DNA of 64,000 nt from an uncultured bacterium (GCA_963766885.1 CAVYBO010000002.1:22014-86013); one strand, 5' to 3'. Positions 5,293 to 53,091 are shown, counted from the stretch's first letter. Notes: generated by a model not told the origin, from the sequence alone. A program made the numbers and translations.

Positions 5293-6354
5293 ATGGCAAA
5301 ACTTAAAGACAGAATTTTTGGAAGATTTTCAAACGATATCGGTATAGATTTGGGTACAGCAAACACTCTGGTCTGGATGAAAGGCGAAGGAATTGTTGTT
5401 AACGAACCATCTGTGGTTGCTTTGAATCAAAAAACTGGCCAGGTTGTGGCAGTCGGGCAAGCGGCAAAGGATATGATAGGCAGGACTCCAGGGCACATTG
5501 TGGCTGTAAGGCCTGTTGTTGAAGGGGTGATTTCTGATTTTGAAGTATGTGAAGAAATGCTTAATTATTTGATAAATAAAGCCAGTGAGAAAAAGCCAAA
5601 GTGGCTTGGTCCAAGAGTGGTCATTGGAGTGCCATCCGGAATAACCAATGTTGAAAGAAGGGCCGTCAAAGATGCTGCCAAAAACGCTGGCGCAAGAGAA
5701 GTGTATATTATTGAAGAGCCGATGGCTGGAGCAATCGGCATCGGACTTCCTATAAAAGATCCACTCGGAAGCATGGTTATAGATATCGGCGGCGGCACCA
5801 CGGATGTGGCGGTTATTTCTTTGGGTGGACTTGTCCATTCGCGTAACATAAAAATTGCGGGCGATAAATTAAACAACGATATAATTTCTTATTTAAGAAA
5901 TGAGTTTAAAATTCTTATTGGAGAAAAAACAGCGGAGGATATAAAAATAAACGTTGGCAATGCTTCTAATATAGATTCTCCGATGGAAATTATGGTTCGT
6001 GGACGTGACCTTATTACAGGACTTCCTCGCGAGGTTGTGGTTACTGACAACGATGTCAAAGAAGCTATAGGTCTTTCTATAGACACCCTGATTGAATCAA
6101 TCAAAGAAGTGATCGAAATTACACCTCCAGAAGTGGTTTCCGATCTTATGTATAAAGGCATTTATGTGATCGGTGGCGGGGCGCTGCTACGCGGACTGAA
6201 AGAACTTCTTGAAGAAAGTCTTAAAATGCCGATACATGTTGCCGATGATCCGCTTACTGCTGTCGTCAGAGGCACGGGCGCAGTGCTTTCTGATATCGAT
6301 AGTTTTAAGGATGCTTTGATACAAAAGGAGGATGAAATGCCTTTCATTCAATAA
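5293..6354 (+). CDS. mreB: rod shape-determining protein MreB
   Basis: 353 aa; GIDLGTANTLVW, DIGGGTTDVAVISLGG; followed by mreC, mreD and PBP2. Confidence 0.9.
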   Translation: MAKLKDRIFGRFSNDIGIDLGTANTLVWMKGEGIVVNEPSVVALNQKTGQVVAVGQAAKDMIGRTPGHIVAVRPVVEGVISDFEVCEEMLNYLINKASEKKPKWLGPRVVIGVPSGITNVERRAVKDAAKNAGAREVYIIEEPMAGAIGIGLPIKDPLGSMVIDIGGGTTDVAVISLGGLVHSRNIKIAGDKLNNDIISYLRNEFKILIGEKTAEDIKINVGNASNIDSPMEIMVRGRDLITGLPREVVVTDNDVKEAIGLSIDTLIESIKEVIEITPPEVVSDLMYKGIYVIGGGALLRGLKELLEESLKMPIHVADDPLTAVVRGTGAVLSDIDSFKDALIQKEDEMPFIQ

Positions 6355-16836: not shown

Positions 16837-17436
16837 TTAACGTCTTCGGAAAACTAGAGCTATTACACCCAAGGCAACGAATACGCAGTACAAAATGCTT
16901 GGCTCAGGCACGCTCATCTGGAGTGCGGGCGTTTGAGTTTCTGCTCCCGCGCTGATTTGCTGTAGAGCCGAAGTGTCTTTTGTGCTTGCAACGCTAACGT
17001 AATCGATCGCCCAAGTGTAGCTACCGGTAACCGTCGGAACGACATCGTCGAGGTTGAAGACAAATTCACGACTGGTGCCCTCTGGAATTACATACCAGAA
17101 TGCATCATCTCCGCTGATTGGAGTGGGAGCAAGCATGTCCGGATCGATGTTTTCTTCAGTGTCCAATGTTGGACTTGCGGCGACGCCGTTGATTGTGAAT
17201 GTGAATCCATCGTCACCGAGCGGAACTGATGCTCTGCGGACGTACTCAGTTTGGGTATCCGCGGAGATATTGATATCGATTCCGAAGTAACCCAATTCCT
17301 CGTAGGTGCTAGAGTACTCTGGTTTTTGCACCTCGTAGGAGGCGCATTCCGTCCAGTTCACGCTTACTTGGGTTGCGTTTGCCGAAGTGATTCCTACCCA
17401 AGAGAGTAGGACCAGTAAAGAATATTTAAAGTTCAT
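16837..17436 (-). CDS. PEP-CTERM-type secreted protein (signal peptide plus C-terminal VPEP-TM-RRR sorting signal), GC-rich
   Basis: Start at MNFKYSLLVLLSWVGITSANA (the ORF track extends further upstream); C-terminus ...VPEPSILYCVFVALGVIALVFRRR; local GC about 50% versus about 35% genome. Confidence 0.6.
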   Translation of the reverse strand: MNFKYSLLVLLSWVGITSANATQVSVNWTECASYEVQKPEYSSTYEELGYFGIDINISADTQTEYVRRASVPLGDDGFTFTINGVAASPTLDTEENIDPDMLAPTPISGDDAFWYVIPEGTSREFVFNLDDVVPTVTGSYTWAIDYVSVASTKDTSALQQISAGAETQTPALQMSVPEPSILYCVFVALGVIALVFRRR

Positions 17437-17470
17437 AATCAGAAAAACACTAACATAAATACTTAATTTT

Positions 17471-18523
17471 GTAAAGATACACGTATAGGTCCAATAGCTT
17501 GGCACCACTTTGGTGGGTTAACATCAAAGGTATGCCATACACAACAAATAAGAATATGCCGAAGATTAGGCAACAAGCAGCTGATTTAGTCAGAAGAGGT
17601 TGGAGCAGAAGAAAGGTTGGTCGATATTTGGGATTTCACCATACAGCGATATCTGAATGGGTCAGAATTGCAAAGAAAATAGGGTATCATCCCATACTAA
17701 CAAGATCATCAAGACCGAAACATCATCCCCAACAATTGGATGAAAGAATCATTAGAAAAATCGTGGAGAAAAGATTAGAGCATGGTCGATATGCGGAAGC
17801 GGTACACAGGGAGCTTCAAAACGATGGTGTGAAAGTTTCTTTGTCATCAGTCAAAAGAACTCTCGACCGGAAGAGACTCATCAAAAAGAGAAGTCCGTAC
17901 AAACGATTCCATCCTCACCAAGATCGCCCATATCCCTTGAAATCAGGCGATTTGGTGCAAATTGATACTATTCATCGGATGGTTGATGGAAAGAAAAGAC
18001 TGTACGTGTTTGTGGTCATTGATGTATTTTCAAGATGGACATACGCAAAAGCATTTGAACGGATGAATGCAAGAACAAGTATTGATTTTGTCAGAGCAGC
18101 GCAAAGAGAATCGTCCTTCCATTTTGATATGTTGCAGTCAGACCATGGACCAGAGTTTGGTAAGTGGTTTGTCTCAAATATCAAAAAGAGCCACAGGTAT
18201 ACCAGAATTGGCAAACCCAATGACAATGCTCATATCGAAAGATTCAACAGGACTCTACAGGAAGAATGCCTGGACAAAGTTCCTAACGATATTCGAATTA
18301 TCAATTGTGCTTTGAAGAAATATTTGAGATATTACAATTTTGAGCGAGTGCACGGAGGAATCAATTATTCAATTCCCATGCAGGTGGTGTGAAGCTATTG
18401 ATTAGATTACGGTATTCAAAATCTTTCGTACCAAGTTAATTGAATGGCAAAGATTTGGAGAGATGCTTTCTAAACAAGATTAGACGCTTGCAATATTTCT
18501 ATACTTTTGTACCATATTAAACA
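17471..18523 (+). mobile_element. IS481-family insertion sequence (putative ends)
   Basis: Transposase ORF flanked by imperfect inverted ends beginning TGT (17471 tgtaaagatacacgtatagg versus reverse complement of 18498-18523 tgtttaatatggtacaaaagtataga); ends are approximate. Confidence 0.4.
17499..18392 (+). CDS. IS481-family (DDE/rve integrase core) transposase
   Basis: N-terminal HTH (GWSRRKVGRYLGFHHTAISEWV), DDE triad (QIDTI, SDHGPEF, NAHIERFNRTL); the track start is TTG, internal ATGs at 17532/17556 are more likely starts. Confidence 0.8.
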   Translation: MAPLWWVNIKGMPYTTNKNMPKIRQQAADLVRRGWSRRKVGRYLGFHHTAISEWVRIAKKIGYHPILTRSSRPKHHPQQLDERIIRKIVEKRLEHGRYAEAVHRELQNDGVKVSLSSVKRTLDRKRLIKKRSPYKRFHPHQDRPYPLKSGDLVQIDTIHRMVDGKKRLYVFVVIDVFSRWTYAKAFERMNARTSIDFVRAAQRESSFHFDMLQSDHGPEFGKWFVSNIKKSHRYTRIGKPNDNAHIERFNRTLQEECLDKVPNDIRIINCALKKYLRYYNFERVHGGINYSIPMQVV

Positions 18524-45955: not shown

Positions 45956-47014
45956 CTACTGTAAATAAATTATTTTAGGCTCTAGCCTAAGTGCTCGTGA
46001 TGACGGTTCGTCGCTGAATCCTAATCTGAATAATGCTGGCACAGCCTTATTCTTAACGCCAAATGTTTGCAAGATACTTTCGTAAGCGTCTTTAATTATT
46101 TTTTGATGTTCCGTAGAAAATATTTTCTCGTTACCTTCGTGGATGTTTTTTACTAGGTAAAGCACACCTGTGCAAGGATGGACGCTGATTCCCATTTTTG
46201 TAGCGTTGAGCCACACTTGCTCCATCGCTCTCCCGGCGTTCACGAAATCTTTATCTGATGAACCACTCATACTAATAATTGCTAAAGCGCCTGAAGCAGA
46301 ATATTTTTCAGCATTTTCTTTGACTATTGTATGAGATATCTTTGCAAGACGGTTCAGTAAAGTCAGAATAGTCCAGTTTCTTAATAATTTTACACCTTTT
46401 AATTGATGTGGTAAAAATTCAAGCGTTTTTATATAAAACCCGCCGGCTTTTTTTTGGTCTTCACTATTCCACAAAATATGATCATAAAAGAATTGATGAA
46501 GTTCTTTGTTTTCAAATATTATCTGTTCATTCACGGCTAGGGCTGCGCCCAATGTTTTCATTCTTTCTTGATCGTCTATTATATTGAGTTCCCCGAACCC
46601 GCTATCTTTTGCGACATTCACCAATATATTTTTTTGCTCATCAGAAAGCTTTTGATTTGCATGACTTTTTCTGTTGGTGCAGCGCGCTCCAAGATATTCA
46701 TATAGTGGATCTTTACCAGCCTCAGATTTTTTAAGCGTAATGATAGAAACAAGATTCGGCTCTTCCTTTTTTGGAAAAATATCAACATCTATGCTGTAGC
46801 CATAATTAGCGGCACTGATTAGAATGTTTTCAATGACTGCGCCGTGGGATACATAAGAACCTTTCTGCTTGAAGTTGTATATGGACTTGTCTGACTCTGG
46901 AATATTATAGATACTTATCTTATTTCCTGTCACCACAAATTTCCAAGGCTGGCAGTTCTCTCCCGAAGGAGCAAGTGTGCCATCATAAATTATGTGTTCA
47001 ATATCCTGTTGCAT
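45956..47014 (-). CDS. tandem nitroreductase-like (SagB/Acg-type) FMN oxidoreductase-fold protein
   Basis: 352 aa; APSGENCQPWKF N-terminal nitroreductase signature; two nitroreductase-like halves; start overlaps the stop of the upstream E1-like gene. Confidence 0.6.
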   Translation of the reverse strand: MQQDIEHIIYDGTLAPSGENCQPWKFVVTGNKISIYNIPESDKSIYNFKQKGSYVSHGAVIENILISAANYGYSIDVDIFPKKEEPNLVSIITLKKSEAGKDPLYEYLGARCTNRKSHANQKLSDEQKNILVNVAKDSGFGELNIIDDQERMKTLGAALAVNEQIIFENKELHQFFYDHILWNSEDQKKAGGFYIKTLEFLPHQLKGVKLLRNWTILTLLNRLAKISHTIVKENAEKYSASGALAIISMSGSSDKDFVNAGRAMEQVWLNATKMGISVHPCTGVLYLVKNIHEGNEKIFSTEHQKIIKDAYESILQTFGVKNKAVPALFRLGFSDEPSSRALRLEPKIIYLQ

Positions 47015-48189
47015 TACAAATTAAAAATCTTTTTAAAGGATTCTGATATTTTTTCTCGTTTGAGGGTTTCCTCTGGGCTGGCATAGCTCGGTATTAGTTT
47101 TTCATCAAGTGAAATAAGCGAGCGGTTCATTTCGAGTTCCTGGCCGTTTAAGATTTTGCGTACGCAATAAGCTACGGCTGCGCCGTTTATCATAGCTGCT
47201 CCGCCAAGCTGTGGCCAGGAAACTATTGTTTTCCCCATTTCAAGCAAAGATTGCTGCATTTTCTCTGTCACGTTTTCCGGCCCAACGTGTTTGGTGATCA
47301 TTCTGCCAATGCCGAATTTATCGAGTTTTGACAGCATTTCGTAAGACACTTCGCCCATTCGGCCGTGGAAAAACGGAGTATTTGGATCAAGATCGTATCG
47401 TTCCACATCAACCACGGCGTTATCTCCGTTATCTGCTGCCATGACCACTGGAAGCCTGTTTTTTTTTGCCTGTTCTCTTATAAGATATTTGACGGCAAGA
47501 TTGTCCAATTCGTCAATAACAATATCCAATCCCTCAAAAAATCTTTCAATGTTTTCTTTATTTAGCCCTTCTGGAAATAATTCTATTTCCGCATACGGAT
47601 TGATCTCATAGATTCTTTTTGCTGCCATTTCAACTTTAAGCATTCCTAAATTGTCTACGCCCATAAGTATTCTGTTTGTATTGGAAAGAGCCAAACGATC
47701 TAAATCCGCAAGTTTCAGATGCTTTGCTCCGCCTTGAAGAACAATGGCAAAAGCGACACTTGACCCAACGCTTAACCCGCCAATGCCTACTGTCGAATTG
47801 TAGAATTTGTCCTGTTCCTTTTCGCTTATTAAATTTTTGTTTCTTGCTGTTCGAACTTTGTAGAAATCCTCTTCTGGCAGAATATGCGCTAATGTTGAGC
47901 TCCAAGGAAAGTAAACCCAGTGGCCTTGCTGCCAAATCGGCTTCTCGCTTTGCAGTCTCTGATAGTATTTTTCAAATTCATCTTTAAAATCTGGACTATA
48001 AACCCTGCCTGGATTTTTCACGCCGTACAATTCAAGCTCTTGTTCTTTGTAATCATCCGAAATATGTTTGATGTCTTCTTTGTCAAACATCTCTTCAAGT
48101 TTTTTTTGGTCATCAATCTTTGACAAATCAAAAAAGAAAGGTTTGATCTGGCAGGCTGCTTGGTTCGTTAAATGTTTTTCTATACTCAT
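47014..48189 (-). CDS. E1-like ThiF/MoeB-family adenylyltransferase with a about 130-aa N-terminal extension
   Basis: VGIGGLSVGSSVAFAIVLQGGAKHLKLADLDRLALSNTNR Rossmann/ThiF motif; no CxxC zinc motifs. Confidence 0.65.
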   Translation of the reverse strand: MSIEKHLTNQAACQIKPFFFDLSKIDDQKKLEEMFDKEDIKHISDDYKEQELELYGVKNPGRVYSPDFKDEFEKYYQRLQSEKPIWQQGHWVYFPWSSTLAHILPEEDFYKVRTARNKNLISEKEQDKFYNSTVGIGGLSVGSSVAFAIVLQGGAKHLKLADLDRLALSNTNRILMGVDNLGMLKVEMAAKRIYEINPYAEIELFPEGLNKENIERFFEGLDIVIDELDNLAVKYLIREQAKKNRLPVVMAADNGDNAVVDVERYDLDPNTPFFHGRMGEVSYEMLSKLDKFGIGRMITKHVGPENVTEKMQQSLLEMGKTIVSWPQLGGAAMINGAAVAYCVRKILNGQELEMNRSLISLDEKLIPSYASPEETLKREKISESFKKIFNL

Positions 48190-50834: not shown

Positions 50835-50896
50835 AATGAATTACTAATTACTTGACTGAAATATAATTATATCACACCAGAAAACATTTTTTGGCT

Positions 50897-51286
50897 CTAA
50901 ATTTTTATTATTTTTTGCATTTCCTCGAGTTCCGATTCTGTTGTTATTTTGCCTCCCTTGGGATTTTTTAATTCTTTGTCATTGTTTATTGGAACCAAAT
51001 GTATGTGTGCGTGTGGGACAGCAAAACCCTCAACGATCAGCCCAATTCTTTTGGCCCCAGTCACCTTTTGTAATTTTGGAGCGATTTTTTTAGCAGTCAA
51101 AAATAATTCTTGGTACCCATCATCAGAAATATCAAAGACATTATCAATGTGATTTTTTGGAATAAGAAGCGTGTGCCCAGGATTTATTGGATGAATATCA
51201 AGGAAAGCCAGGTGAGTTTCATCTTCCCAAACTTTGTGACTTGGTAATTCTTCTTTTACAATTTTACAAAAAATGCAATCATCCAT
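50897..51286 (-). CDS. HIT-family (Hint-like) nucleotide hydrolase
   Basis: 129 aa; CIFCKI..., HAHIHLVP histidine triad. Confidence 0.85.
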   Translation of the reverse strand: MDDCIFCKIVKEELPSHKVWEDETHLAFLDIHPINPGHTLLIPKNHIDNVFDISDDGYQELFLTAKKIAPKLQKVTGAKRIGLIVEGFAVPHAHIHLVPINNDKELKNPKGGKITTESELEEMQKIIKI

Positions 51287-51300
51287 TACATTATTATAGC

Positions 51301-53091
51301 TTAATTATTTTCTTTGGAGTCGTCAGCAAACTGTATGTTATAAAGTTTTTTGTAAGTTGGGCTTTTTTCTAAAAGCTCCTCGTGCTTGCCTGTGGCTTCA
51401 ATCTGACTGTCTTTAAAGACAACAATCATATCAGCATGCAGCACCGTAGAGAGTCTGTGAGCAATAATAATTGAAGTTCGGTCTTTAATTAGAGCATCTG
51501 TAGCTTTGCTAATTAATTTTTCGCTCTCACTGTCCAAATGGCTTGTAGCTTCGTCCAAAATAAGGATCCTTGGATCGCGAAGTACGGCCCGCGCAATGCC
51601 AACTCTTTGGCGCTCGCCGCCAGAAAGCTTGATACCTCGCTCGCCCACAACTGTGTCGTAACCATTTTCTAGCTTTTGGATAAAGCCATCGGCAAGTGCA
51701 GTTTTGGCGGCGTTTTCGATTTCCATTTGATTTGTATTTTCTCTACCGTAGGCTATATTTTCGGAAACAGTTCTTGAAAACAAATCTACTTCTTGCGGCA
51801 CCACAGCCATTTGTTCACGTAAACTTTTTTGCGTTACGTCGCGGATATCTTTTTCATCAATAATAATTTGTCCTTTTTGCGGATCGTATGATCGCATTAG
51901 CATATTTATAAATGTTGTTTTGCCGCTGCCCGATCTTCCAACCAAAGCTACGGTTTTTCCAGCCGGAATTACAAGATTTATACTTTTGAGTGCCCAATCC
52001 TTATTTTCATTATTTACTCCGTGATATGAAAAAGAAACGTTTTTAAATTCAATTTGCTTTTGAAGATACGGAAGGATTTCAGCCTCAGCTTTATCCGTAA
52101 CATGAACCTCTTCATCCAAAACGGCAAATAATCTTTCTACTCGGGTGGCATTGCGCCGCATTCTTGGAAAAATTATCGAAAGCTGGGAGAGCGGCTGATA
52201 TGCCATATTTTGAAGCGTAATAAAAAGCACAAATTGTCCGATTGAGGCTTGTCCAACAAGGACAAACCAGGAGCTCAAAATAAGCACAATCACTCTGCCA
52301 GCTGTTGCAATGGCTGTTTGGGTGTTTTCTACCACTCCCCACAGCCTCTCGGCGCTATACTGAATTTCTCGTGCTTTAGCCATAAGAACATGTTCGTTCT
52401 CCGTTTCGGTTTCTTCCTGGGAGAATTTTTTGACAGTCAGCACATTTCCAGCAACGTCGTAGAGCTCTTTTGAAATCATTTCAAAAACATCGTTTGACTC
52501 CTGTTCGATTTTGTAAATTTTGTCGGAAATTCTTTTGGTGCTCAAAAAATAAATTGGAAAAGGAATAAGCACAGCAATTGCAATCCAAACATTTTCATAC
52601 GTTAATGCGACGAATGTGCCGATGAAAATTATTAAAGACGGCAAAAGCATCTGGCCGATTATGTCATAGAGAATTGAGTAGGCGGAGGTCGCACCCCTTT
52701 CAATTCGTCCGATAATTTGTCCACTTGAAGATTGATGATGGAATAAAGCATGAAGATCAAGATATTTTTCAAATGTTTCATTTCGTAATCGATCTTCTGT
52801 TTTTGTCACTAGTTTGAATAGGTGATAATTGTAGCTTGATTGAAAAATACTAGAAACAAGCGTTGCAAACAAAATTCCAATTGCAGCATAAACTAAGGTT
52901 AACCAAGGTACAGCGCCACCGATTTTTAAATAATTAGTCATCGCATCAATCAAGTCTTTTGAAATAAAAGGAACTACAAGGCTTGCTCCTTGAGATACGG
53001 TAATAAGAAAAATCAAAAAGATAACGGTCTTTTTGCGATCTTTAAGCAATGACAATATTCTTCTTATTGTTCCCTGCGGTTTCTGATCCAT
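51301..53091 (-). CDS. ABC exporter, fused permease/ATPase (MsbA-like)
   Basis: 596 aa; 6 TM, Walker A GRSGSGKTT, signature LSGGERQRVGIARA, Walker B ILILDEATS. Confidence 0.85.
   Translation of the reverse strand: MDQKPQGTIRRILSLLKDRKKTVIFLIFLITVSQGASLVVPFISKDLIDAMTNYLKIGGAVPWLTLVYAAIGILFATLVSSIFQSSYNYHLFKLVTKTEDRLRNETFEKYLDLHALFHHQSSSGQIIGRIERGATSAYSILYDIIGQMLLPSLIIFIGTFVALTYENVWIAIAVLIPFPIYFLSTKRISDKIYKIEQESNDVFEMISKELYDVAGNVLTVKKFSQEETETENEHVLMAKAREIQYSAERLWGVVENTQTAIATAGRVIVLILSSWFVLVGQASIGQFVLFITLQNMAYQPLSQLSIIFPRMRRNATRVERLFAVLDEEVHVTDKAEAEILPYLQKQIEFKNVSFSYHGVNNENKDWALKSINLVIPAGKTVALVGRSGSGKTTFINMLMRSYDPQKGQIIIDEKDIRDVTQKSLREQMAVVPQEVDLFSRTVSENIAYGRENTNQMEIENAAKTALADGFIQKLENGYDTVVGERGIKLSGGERQRVGIARAVLRDPRILILDEATSHLDSESEKLISKATDALIKDRTSIIIAHRLSTVLHADMIVVFKDSQIEATGKHEELLEKSPTYKKLYNIQFADDSKENN

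Follow-up and report, generated by a model that had tools for sequence, protein, structure and literature searches.

The E1-like gene of this study could be assigned by its sequence to the Rv1355c/TrzS family as the cyclase half of a split ThiF-FDO enzyme; its adenylation site is intact, and an FDO partner is encoded next to it. It lies in a 64,000-nucleotide stretch of DNA, which as a whole is referred to here as the window. We estimate a probability of roughly 0.6 that, by analogy with characterised enzymes, its product would be the subunit that cyclises a ligase-made N-acyl amino acid in a split oxazolone synthetase of the ThiF-FDO type. The missing zinc site and the N-terminal module of the protein are, as judged from family comparison, hallmarks of a known family, and the cassette which surrounds the gene in Patescibacteria is a new pathway variant around a known kind of enzyme. 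A literature search found no description of an oxazolone cassette in Patescibacteria.

Analysis of the window revealed six genes arranged head to tail, with gaps of at most 10 nt or overlaps, in the order ligase, aminotransferase, E1 cyclase, oxidase, kinase, and membrane protein (Table 1). The stop codon of the E1 cyclase overlaps the start of the oxidase gene in the sequence TAATG.

Table 1. Genes of the packed run and the N-terminal module of the E1 protein, in window coordinates.
Feature	Position	Strand	Remarks
PaaK-like ANL adenylate-forming ligase, 516 aa	49284–50834	-	No Pfam family; weak PaaK and FlxY matches
HisC-like class I/II aminotransferase, 363 aa	48192–49283	-	Pfam Aminotran_1_2, 8e-52; variable accessory gene
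E1/ThiF-like ATP-dependent cyclase (predicted), 391 aa	47014–48189	-	TyzB-like; corresponds to the N-terminal half of TrzS/Rv1355c
N-terminal module of the E1 cyclase, residues 1–107	47869–48189	-	Predicted beta-alpha-beta-alpha-alpha-beta-beta; family-specific
Flavin-dependent oxidase, Acg-type double nitroreductase fold, 352 aa	45956–47014	-	Corresponds to the C-terminal half of TrzS; TyzC-like
Sensor histidine kinase, N-terminal 7TM, 557 aa	44279–45952	-	Pfam HisKA_7TM, HisKA, HATPase_c; 3 nt after the oxidase gene
Multi-pass membrane protein, 231 aa	43573–44268	-	Last gene of the packed run

The E1 ORF is genuine, and its product contains only two cysteines, C13 and C342, and no CxxC, which bears out the claim of an earlier sequence-only reading that this E1-like protein carries no zinc-binding CxxC motif. 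The aromatic-rich motif to which that reading had drawn attention, PIWQQGHWVYFPWSSTLAHILPEEDFY, was located at residues 84–110. An N-terminal extension of about 130 residues had also been proposed; the extension is present, but its length is approximately 107 residues, since the protein aligns with TcdA from residue 108 onwards and the start of the E1 core is marked by the conserved RTARN helix at residues 113–117. The Pfam ThiF domain covered residues 117–252 only (7e-26). The ATP-binding motifs could be identified as GIGGLSVG (135–142), D162/D164, SNTNR (169–173), K185, and DELDN (226–230), and the adenylation residues among them (the G-loop 135–142, D162/D164, N170/N172/R173, K185, and D226/D229) were invariant across 77 homologous sequences. 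D226/D229 appear to be equivalent to D217 of TrzS.

The family assignment was obtained with the NCBIfam model NF005901, ‘Rv1355c family’. The E1 cyclase matched the first half of this model (1.9e-99, 333.9 bits; residues 9–376 aligned to positions 5–349 of 722), while the oxidase matched positions 375–713 (1.7e-59, 201.8 bits). When the two proteins were fused in silico, residues 9–736 gave one continuous match to model positions 5–713 with 541.9 bits, which exceeds the curated equivalog cut-off of 476 bits. The oxidase can thus be regarded as the other half of one enzyme with the E1 cyclase, and the N-terminal extension, which the match spans, as part of the Rv1355c family model. The divergent E1-like subfamily that the sequence-only reading had suggested does lack the zinc site and carry the extension, but it is already known as Rv1355c/TrzS. 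An explanation of the two overlapping genes as a frameshifted fusion gene was rejected; the start/stop-overlap split is kept in dozens of genomes, and the fused forms are separate lineages.

An exhaustive HMMER search with the E1 cyclase returned 971 representative clusters at E <1e-30. The relatives consisted of stand-alone proteins of 350–400 aa and fused proteins of 720–780 aa, the E1 cyclase having approximately 35–40% identity to the fused forms, and most of the alignments started near query residue 14–17. None of 120 close homologues contained a CxxC, and a single CxxC was seen in only 2 of 150 representatives clustered at 50% identity; the absence of the motif is therefore a property of the family and not a matter of chance.

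AlphaFold2 prediction of the whole E1 cyclase gave a pLDDT of 89 and a pTM of 0.88, with residues 20–110 at approximately 97. The N-terminal module modelled alone reached a pLDDT of 93.6 with the same order of strands and helices as listed in Table 1. The region is kept in both split and fused forms of the enzyme, which share the motifs D..Y..QL.EL...RNP and G.WVYYPW...LVH.L. A Foldseek search with the full E1 model retrieved AclA (9egb), ThiF, Uba4, SUMO E1, PaaA, TcdA, and MccB, of which only approximately 260 core columns were aligned, and no structural relative of the N-terminal module was found in the PDB despite its high-confidence prediction. The sequence-only reading had considered this region as a possible docking module for a substrate or of the peptide-clamp kind. 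MccB and PaaA, which modify RiPPs, do resemble the present protein in combining an E1 core with an N-terminal accessory domain; however, their domain is an RRE ‘peptide clamp’, while the module described here showed no likeness to the PqqD-like winged helix of RREs or to the MccB clamp, and no precursor peptide gene was present. Because the fold is not RRE-like and the Foldseek alignments cover the E1 core only, the peptide-clamp idea is left unsupported. The module may instead serve in docking of the oxidase or the ligase, as a lid over the acyl group, or in dimerisation. Ring closure as such probably does not require the module, since TyzB, with 318 aa, is too short to hold it.

The best structural match to the E1 core was PDB 9egb/9egc, released in 2025 as ‘AclA from Tenacibaculum discolor in complex with substrate’. 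No paper describing the 9egb ‘AclA’ was found in a literature search, and its substrate might be informative for the chemistry of the E1 cyclase. The closest sequence relative of the E1 core in the PDB was TcdA (4e-13).

Among the partner genes, the oxidase was assigned to the Acg family of FMN oxidoreductases (1.9e-34), with Acg itself (PDB 2ymv) as the best solved match. The ligase has kept all ANL motifs in invariant form, namely SGSTGRP (117–123), YG (274–275), R345/D350/G352, R395/D397, and the C-terminal K509. The aminotransferase scored 253.8 bits against the hisC model, under the cut-off of 276.55. The 231-aa membrane protein had no Pfam or NCBIfam match and no homologue in the other loci, and is not conserved with the cassette; its candidacy as a paralogue of the kinase was rejected, as it shows no similarity to the kinase. 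A Pfam scan revealed no FeeM/OxzA/TyzA/TrzA-type acyltransferase (FeeM/GNAT) in the operon or among 28 ORFs of 180–400 aa in the 64-kb window of the approximately 0.6-Mb genome.

A scan of the operon for promoters and terminators gave counts not above the shuffled expectation. The only sizeable gap in the gene run is the 62 nt upstream of the ligase, and this gap holds an extended -10-like element, TGATATAAT, at 50866–50874 on the minus strand, 31 nt before the ligase start codon. Directly upstream on the same strand lie a HIT-family hydrolase (50897–51286) and an ABC exporter with fused TMD-NBD (51301–53091), neither of which is consistently linked to the cassette in other genomes. Elsewhere in the window, an rve-type integrase ORF of an IS element (17499–18392) abuts a small ORF with a PEP-CTERM motif (16837–17508), and these two are unusual for an otherwise housekeeping stretch of a reduced genome. 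Two full-length MreB paralogues (628–1641 and 5293–6354) occur within 6 kb, the second of them followed by MreC.

More than 80 genomes of Patescibacteria, among them Nomura-, Taylor-, Kaiser-, Lipton-, Uhr-, and Doudnabacteria, contained homologues of the E1 cyclase with 53–81% identity. In 68 of the 74 loci with enough flanking sequence, the ligase gene immediately preceded the E1 gene. The oxidase was adjacent downstream in 48 of 72 and elsewhere in the locus in approximately 11 more; approximately one third of the loci had no adjacent oxidase. Of 62 close loci, 43 had a histidine kinase with at least 29% BLASTP identity to the 7TM kinase of the window after the cassette. A kinase was likewise located downstream in all four distant loci, where a fused ThiF-FDO gene lies beside the same upstream gene of approximately 500 aa.

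The accessory gene beside the ligase was variable. In 8 loci it encoded a HisC-like aminotransferase, and in approximately 19 an ELFV dehydrogenase with the tryptophan dehydrogenase ScyB as its closest match. In a further 14 loci its product was a TAL-like aromatic ammonia-lyase, most similar to FlxA, a tyrosine ammonia-lyase. Two types of ligase could be distinguished, of which type 2, approximately 30% identical to type 1, also matches the flexirubin acid ligase FlxY. All 14 lyase loci carried type 2, and type 1 was found in the dehydrogenase and aminotransferase loci. Since all three accessory enzymes also form aryl acids from aromatic amino acids, this covariation suggests that the ligase acts on an aryl acid.

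The whole cassette, including the kinase, was also found around fused ThiF-FDO genes with 39–47% identity. One fused gene with 51% identity was accompanied by lyase and ligase but followed by a methyltransferase, and its short contig contained no kinase. One fused relative with 38% identity had a FeeM/Autoind_synth acyltransferase as neighbour, while a similarly distant one (38–39% identity) had the dehydrogenase and the ligase. Ligase and acyltransferase thus appear to be alternative occupants of one functional slot, and the acyltransferase in the same position in sister clades suggests that the role of the ligase is equivalent to that of an N-acyl amino acid synthase. Some genomes run two paralogous systems, as seen from the tandem cassettes on one contig (L042:4852–13260), where lyase, type 2 ligase, and E1 are followed by a second cassette of type 1 ligase and E1 that is truncated by the contig end. 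In distant cassettes (L086:5378–6136, L087:4164–4895, and L090:10283–11197), the ThiF(-FDO) gene is followed by a UbiE-like SAM methyltransferase or by an alpha/beta hydrolase, the latter, where present, between the fused enzyme and the kinase. These genes may code for tailoring or ring-opening steps; stieleriacine clusters likewise have a methyltransferase.

Comparison of the cassette members revealed an unequal degree of conservation. The median identity over the same loci (L002–L085) was 66% for the E1 cyclase, compared to 56% for DnaJ and 54% for TrpRS, and it was far higher than that of its partners (oxidase, 39%; kinase, 41%; ligase, 53%). Conservation above that of housekeeping genes is odd for a dispensable enzyme of secondary metabolism and could reflect a different, more central substrate. 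The E1 sequences were not partitioned by ligase type (63% identity between types against 62–64% within), which suggests that the E1 cyclase recognises an invariant part of the substrate or is under additional constraints.

Oxazolone synthetases were discovered between 2021 and 2025, and a signalling role has been suggested for them. Rv1355c was characterised in 2025 as TrzS, which converts N-acyl-Trp to N-acyl tryptazolone by ATP-dependent cyclisation followed by O2-dependent desaturation, and in which a D217A substitution in the adenylation motif abolished the cyclisation (PMC12856293). The present enzyme resembles TrzS in the full-length HMM match including the N-terminal module, the lack of CxxC, the adenylation motifs, and the Acg-type oxidase partner. 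It differs in being encoded by two overlapping genes instead of one fusion, at the low identity to fused forms given above, in having a PaaK-like ligase upstream in place of the TrzA acyltransferase, and in its patescibacterial host, TrzS belonging to a mycolic-acid actinobacterium. A naturally split pair is known from M. tuberculosis, where TyzB and TyzC (Rv2338c/Rv2337c) act with TyzA in the tyrazolone pathway (Grigg et al. 2023, PMC10404671). [quoted passage not shown] OxzB of Pseudoalteromonas rubra, a fused oxazolone synthetase with OxzA as partner (de Rond et al., bioRxiv 10.1101/2020.06.11.147165), would likewise offer an analogy, as its ThiF and nitroreductase domains form such a pair and use an N-acylated aromatic amino acid as substrate; unlike the present system, it is fused and depends on OxzA, a FeeM-like N-acyltransferase using decanoyl-CoA. 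TyzB and OxzB fall into an SSN subcluster other than that of TrzS. In all characterised oxazolone pathways the substrate is supplied by a FeeM-like N-acyl amino acid synthase using acyl-CoA, and homologous ThiF and nitroreductase pairs also accompany N-acyl dehydrotyrosine pathways. TcdA/CsdL, the tRNA ct6A dehydratase, is also without zinc cysteines and closes an oxazolone ring through an adenylate; however, it lacks both the N-terminal module and an oxidase partner, and it acts on tRNA.

Under the favoured oxazolone-synthetase reading, the pathway would begin with an accessory aminotransferase, dehydrogenase, or ammonia-lyase that converts an aromatic amino acid to an aryl acid. The PaaK-like ligase would activate this acid and join it to an amino acid, replacing the acyl-CoA-dependent FeeM-type acyltransferase. 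By analogy with TrzS, OxzB, and TyzB, the E1 cyclase would use ATP to adenylate the free carboxylate of the N-acylated, probably aromatic, amino acid. Attack of the amide oxygen on the acyl-adenylate would then yield the 5(4H)-oxazolone ring and AMP, a step for which a zinc site and a catalytic cysteine would not be needed. The translationally coupled flavin oxidase would desaturate the C-alpha–C-beta bond. The product would be an arylidene-oxazolone or, should the ring open, an N-acyl dehydro-amino acid, and it may be sensed or regulated by the kinase. The substrate, the amide-forming role of the ligase, and the product of the cassette are inferred, and the output of the ligase could be a CoA thioester instead of an amide. 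Patescibacteria are often anaerobic, and an O2-dependent oxidase would be unexpected there, which counts against the oxazolone-synthetase reading, as do the loci that have no oxidase beside the E1 gene and the strong conservation of the cyclase.

Other readings of the E1 gene were weighed against the same evidence. The generic ThiF fold, the ATP motifs, and weak matches to ThiF and MoeB models would agree with a canonical enzyme of the MoeB/ThiF type that activates a sulfur carrier or a ubiquitin-like protein, but this is effectively refuted: the scores were 57–79 bits against cut-offs of 152–450, there is no zinc tetrathiolate, the sole near-conserved cysteine, C342, lies outside the crossover-loop region, and the partner is a flavin oxidase. 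Nor does the operon contain a beta-grasp ORF, or a small ORF or gap in which such a partner could be encoded. It is also improbable, to a lesser degree, that adenylation and cyclisation take place on a macromolecule. This could be a tRNA nucleoside as in TcdA, or a peptide or protein modified at its C-terminus, and the N-terminal module would then serve for docking. TcdA is the best PDB sequence match and shares the lack of zinc cysteines, and both the conservation of the E1 cyclase above its housekeeping neighbours and its indifference to ligase type would fit such a substrate. However, the TcdA equivalog model NF011696 gave 50.3 bits against a cut-off of 304, while the Rv1355c model matched over the full length. 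The fold of the module resembles neither an RRE nor a clamp, the operon gaps are too short to accommodate a precursor gene, and the ligase, oxidase, and amino-acid deaminating genes would be left unexplained.

A further reading, which we consider unlikely though less so than a macromolecular substrate, keeps a small molecule but changes its nature: the E1 cyclase and oxidase would act on another ligase-made compound, for example an aryl-acyl one that is closed to a lactone, lactam, or other heterocycle, or take part in catabolism or salvage of aromatic amino acids. The upstream enzymes are indeed unlike those of every characterised oxazolone pathway, no FeeM-type acyltransferase occurs among the window ORFs scanned, and the identity to fused forms of the characterised type is low. 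This is opposed by the joined E1 and oxidase sequence, which scores above the curated equivalog cut-off for the TrzS family, and by the N-acyl amino acid synthase occupying the same position in sister clades, and an oxazolone synthetase fed by a ligase is the reading that we retain.

The genomes of Patescibacteria are minimal, and hardly any specialised metabolism has been recognised in them. The current labels ‘molybdopterin/thiamine biosynthesis adenylyltransferase’ and ‘phenylacetate-CoA ligase’ are misleading for the E1 and ligase genes. The clade would extend ThiF-like small-molecule chemistry past the single validated example in a 2025 review. With its conserved cyclase, its presumably CoA-independent ligase, its deaminating enzymes, and its usual 7TM kinase, it is also useful for asking what purpose oxazolones serve. 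A speculative and rather doubtful proposal, by analogy with CqsA/CqsS, is that the cassette of deaminase, ANL ligase, ThiF cyclase, oxidase, and 7TM kinase could form a self-contained synthase-receptor module. If this were true, the signal (or chromophore) of Paceibacteria would be an aryl-acyl oxazolone or a dehydro-amino acid, made without acyl-CoA and sensed by the adjacent 7TM kinase. The strong conservation of the cyclase would then be explained, and no small-molecule signalling system would have been defined before this one in the Candidate Phyla Radiation.
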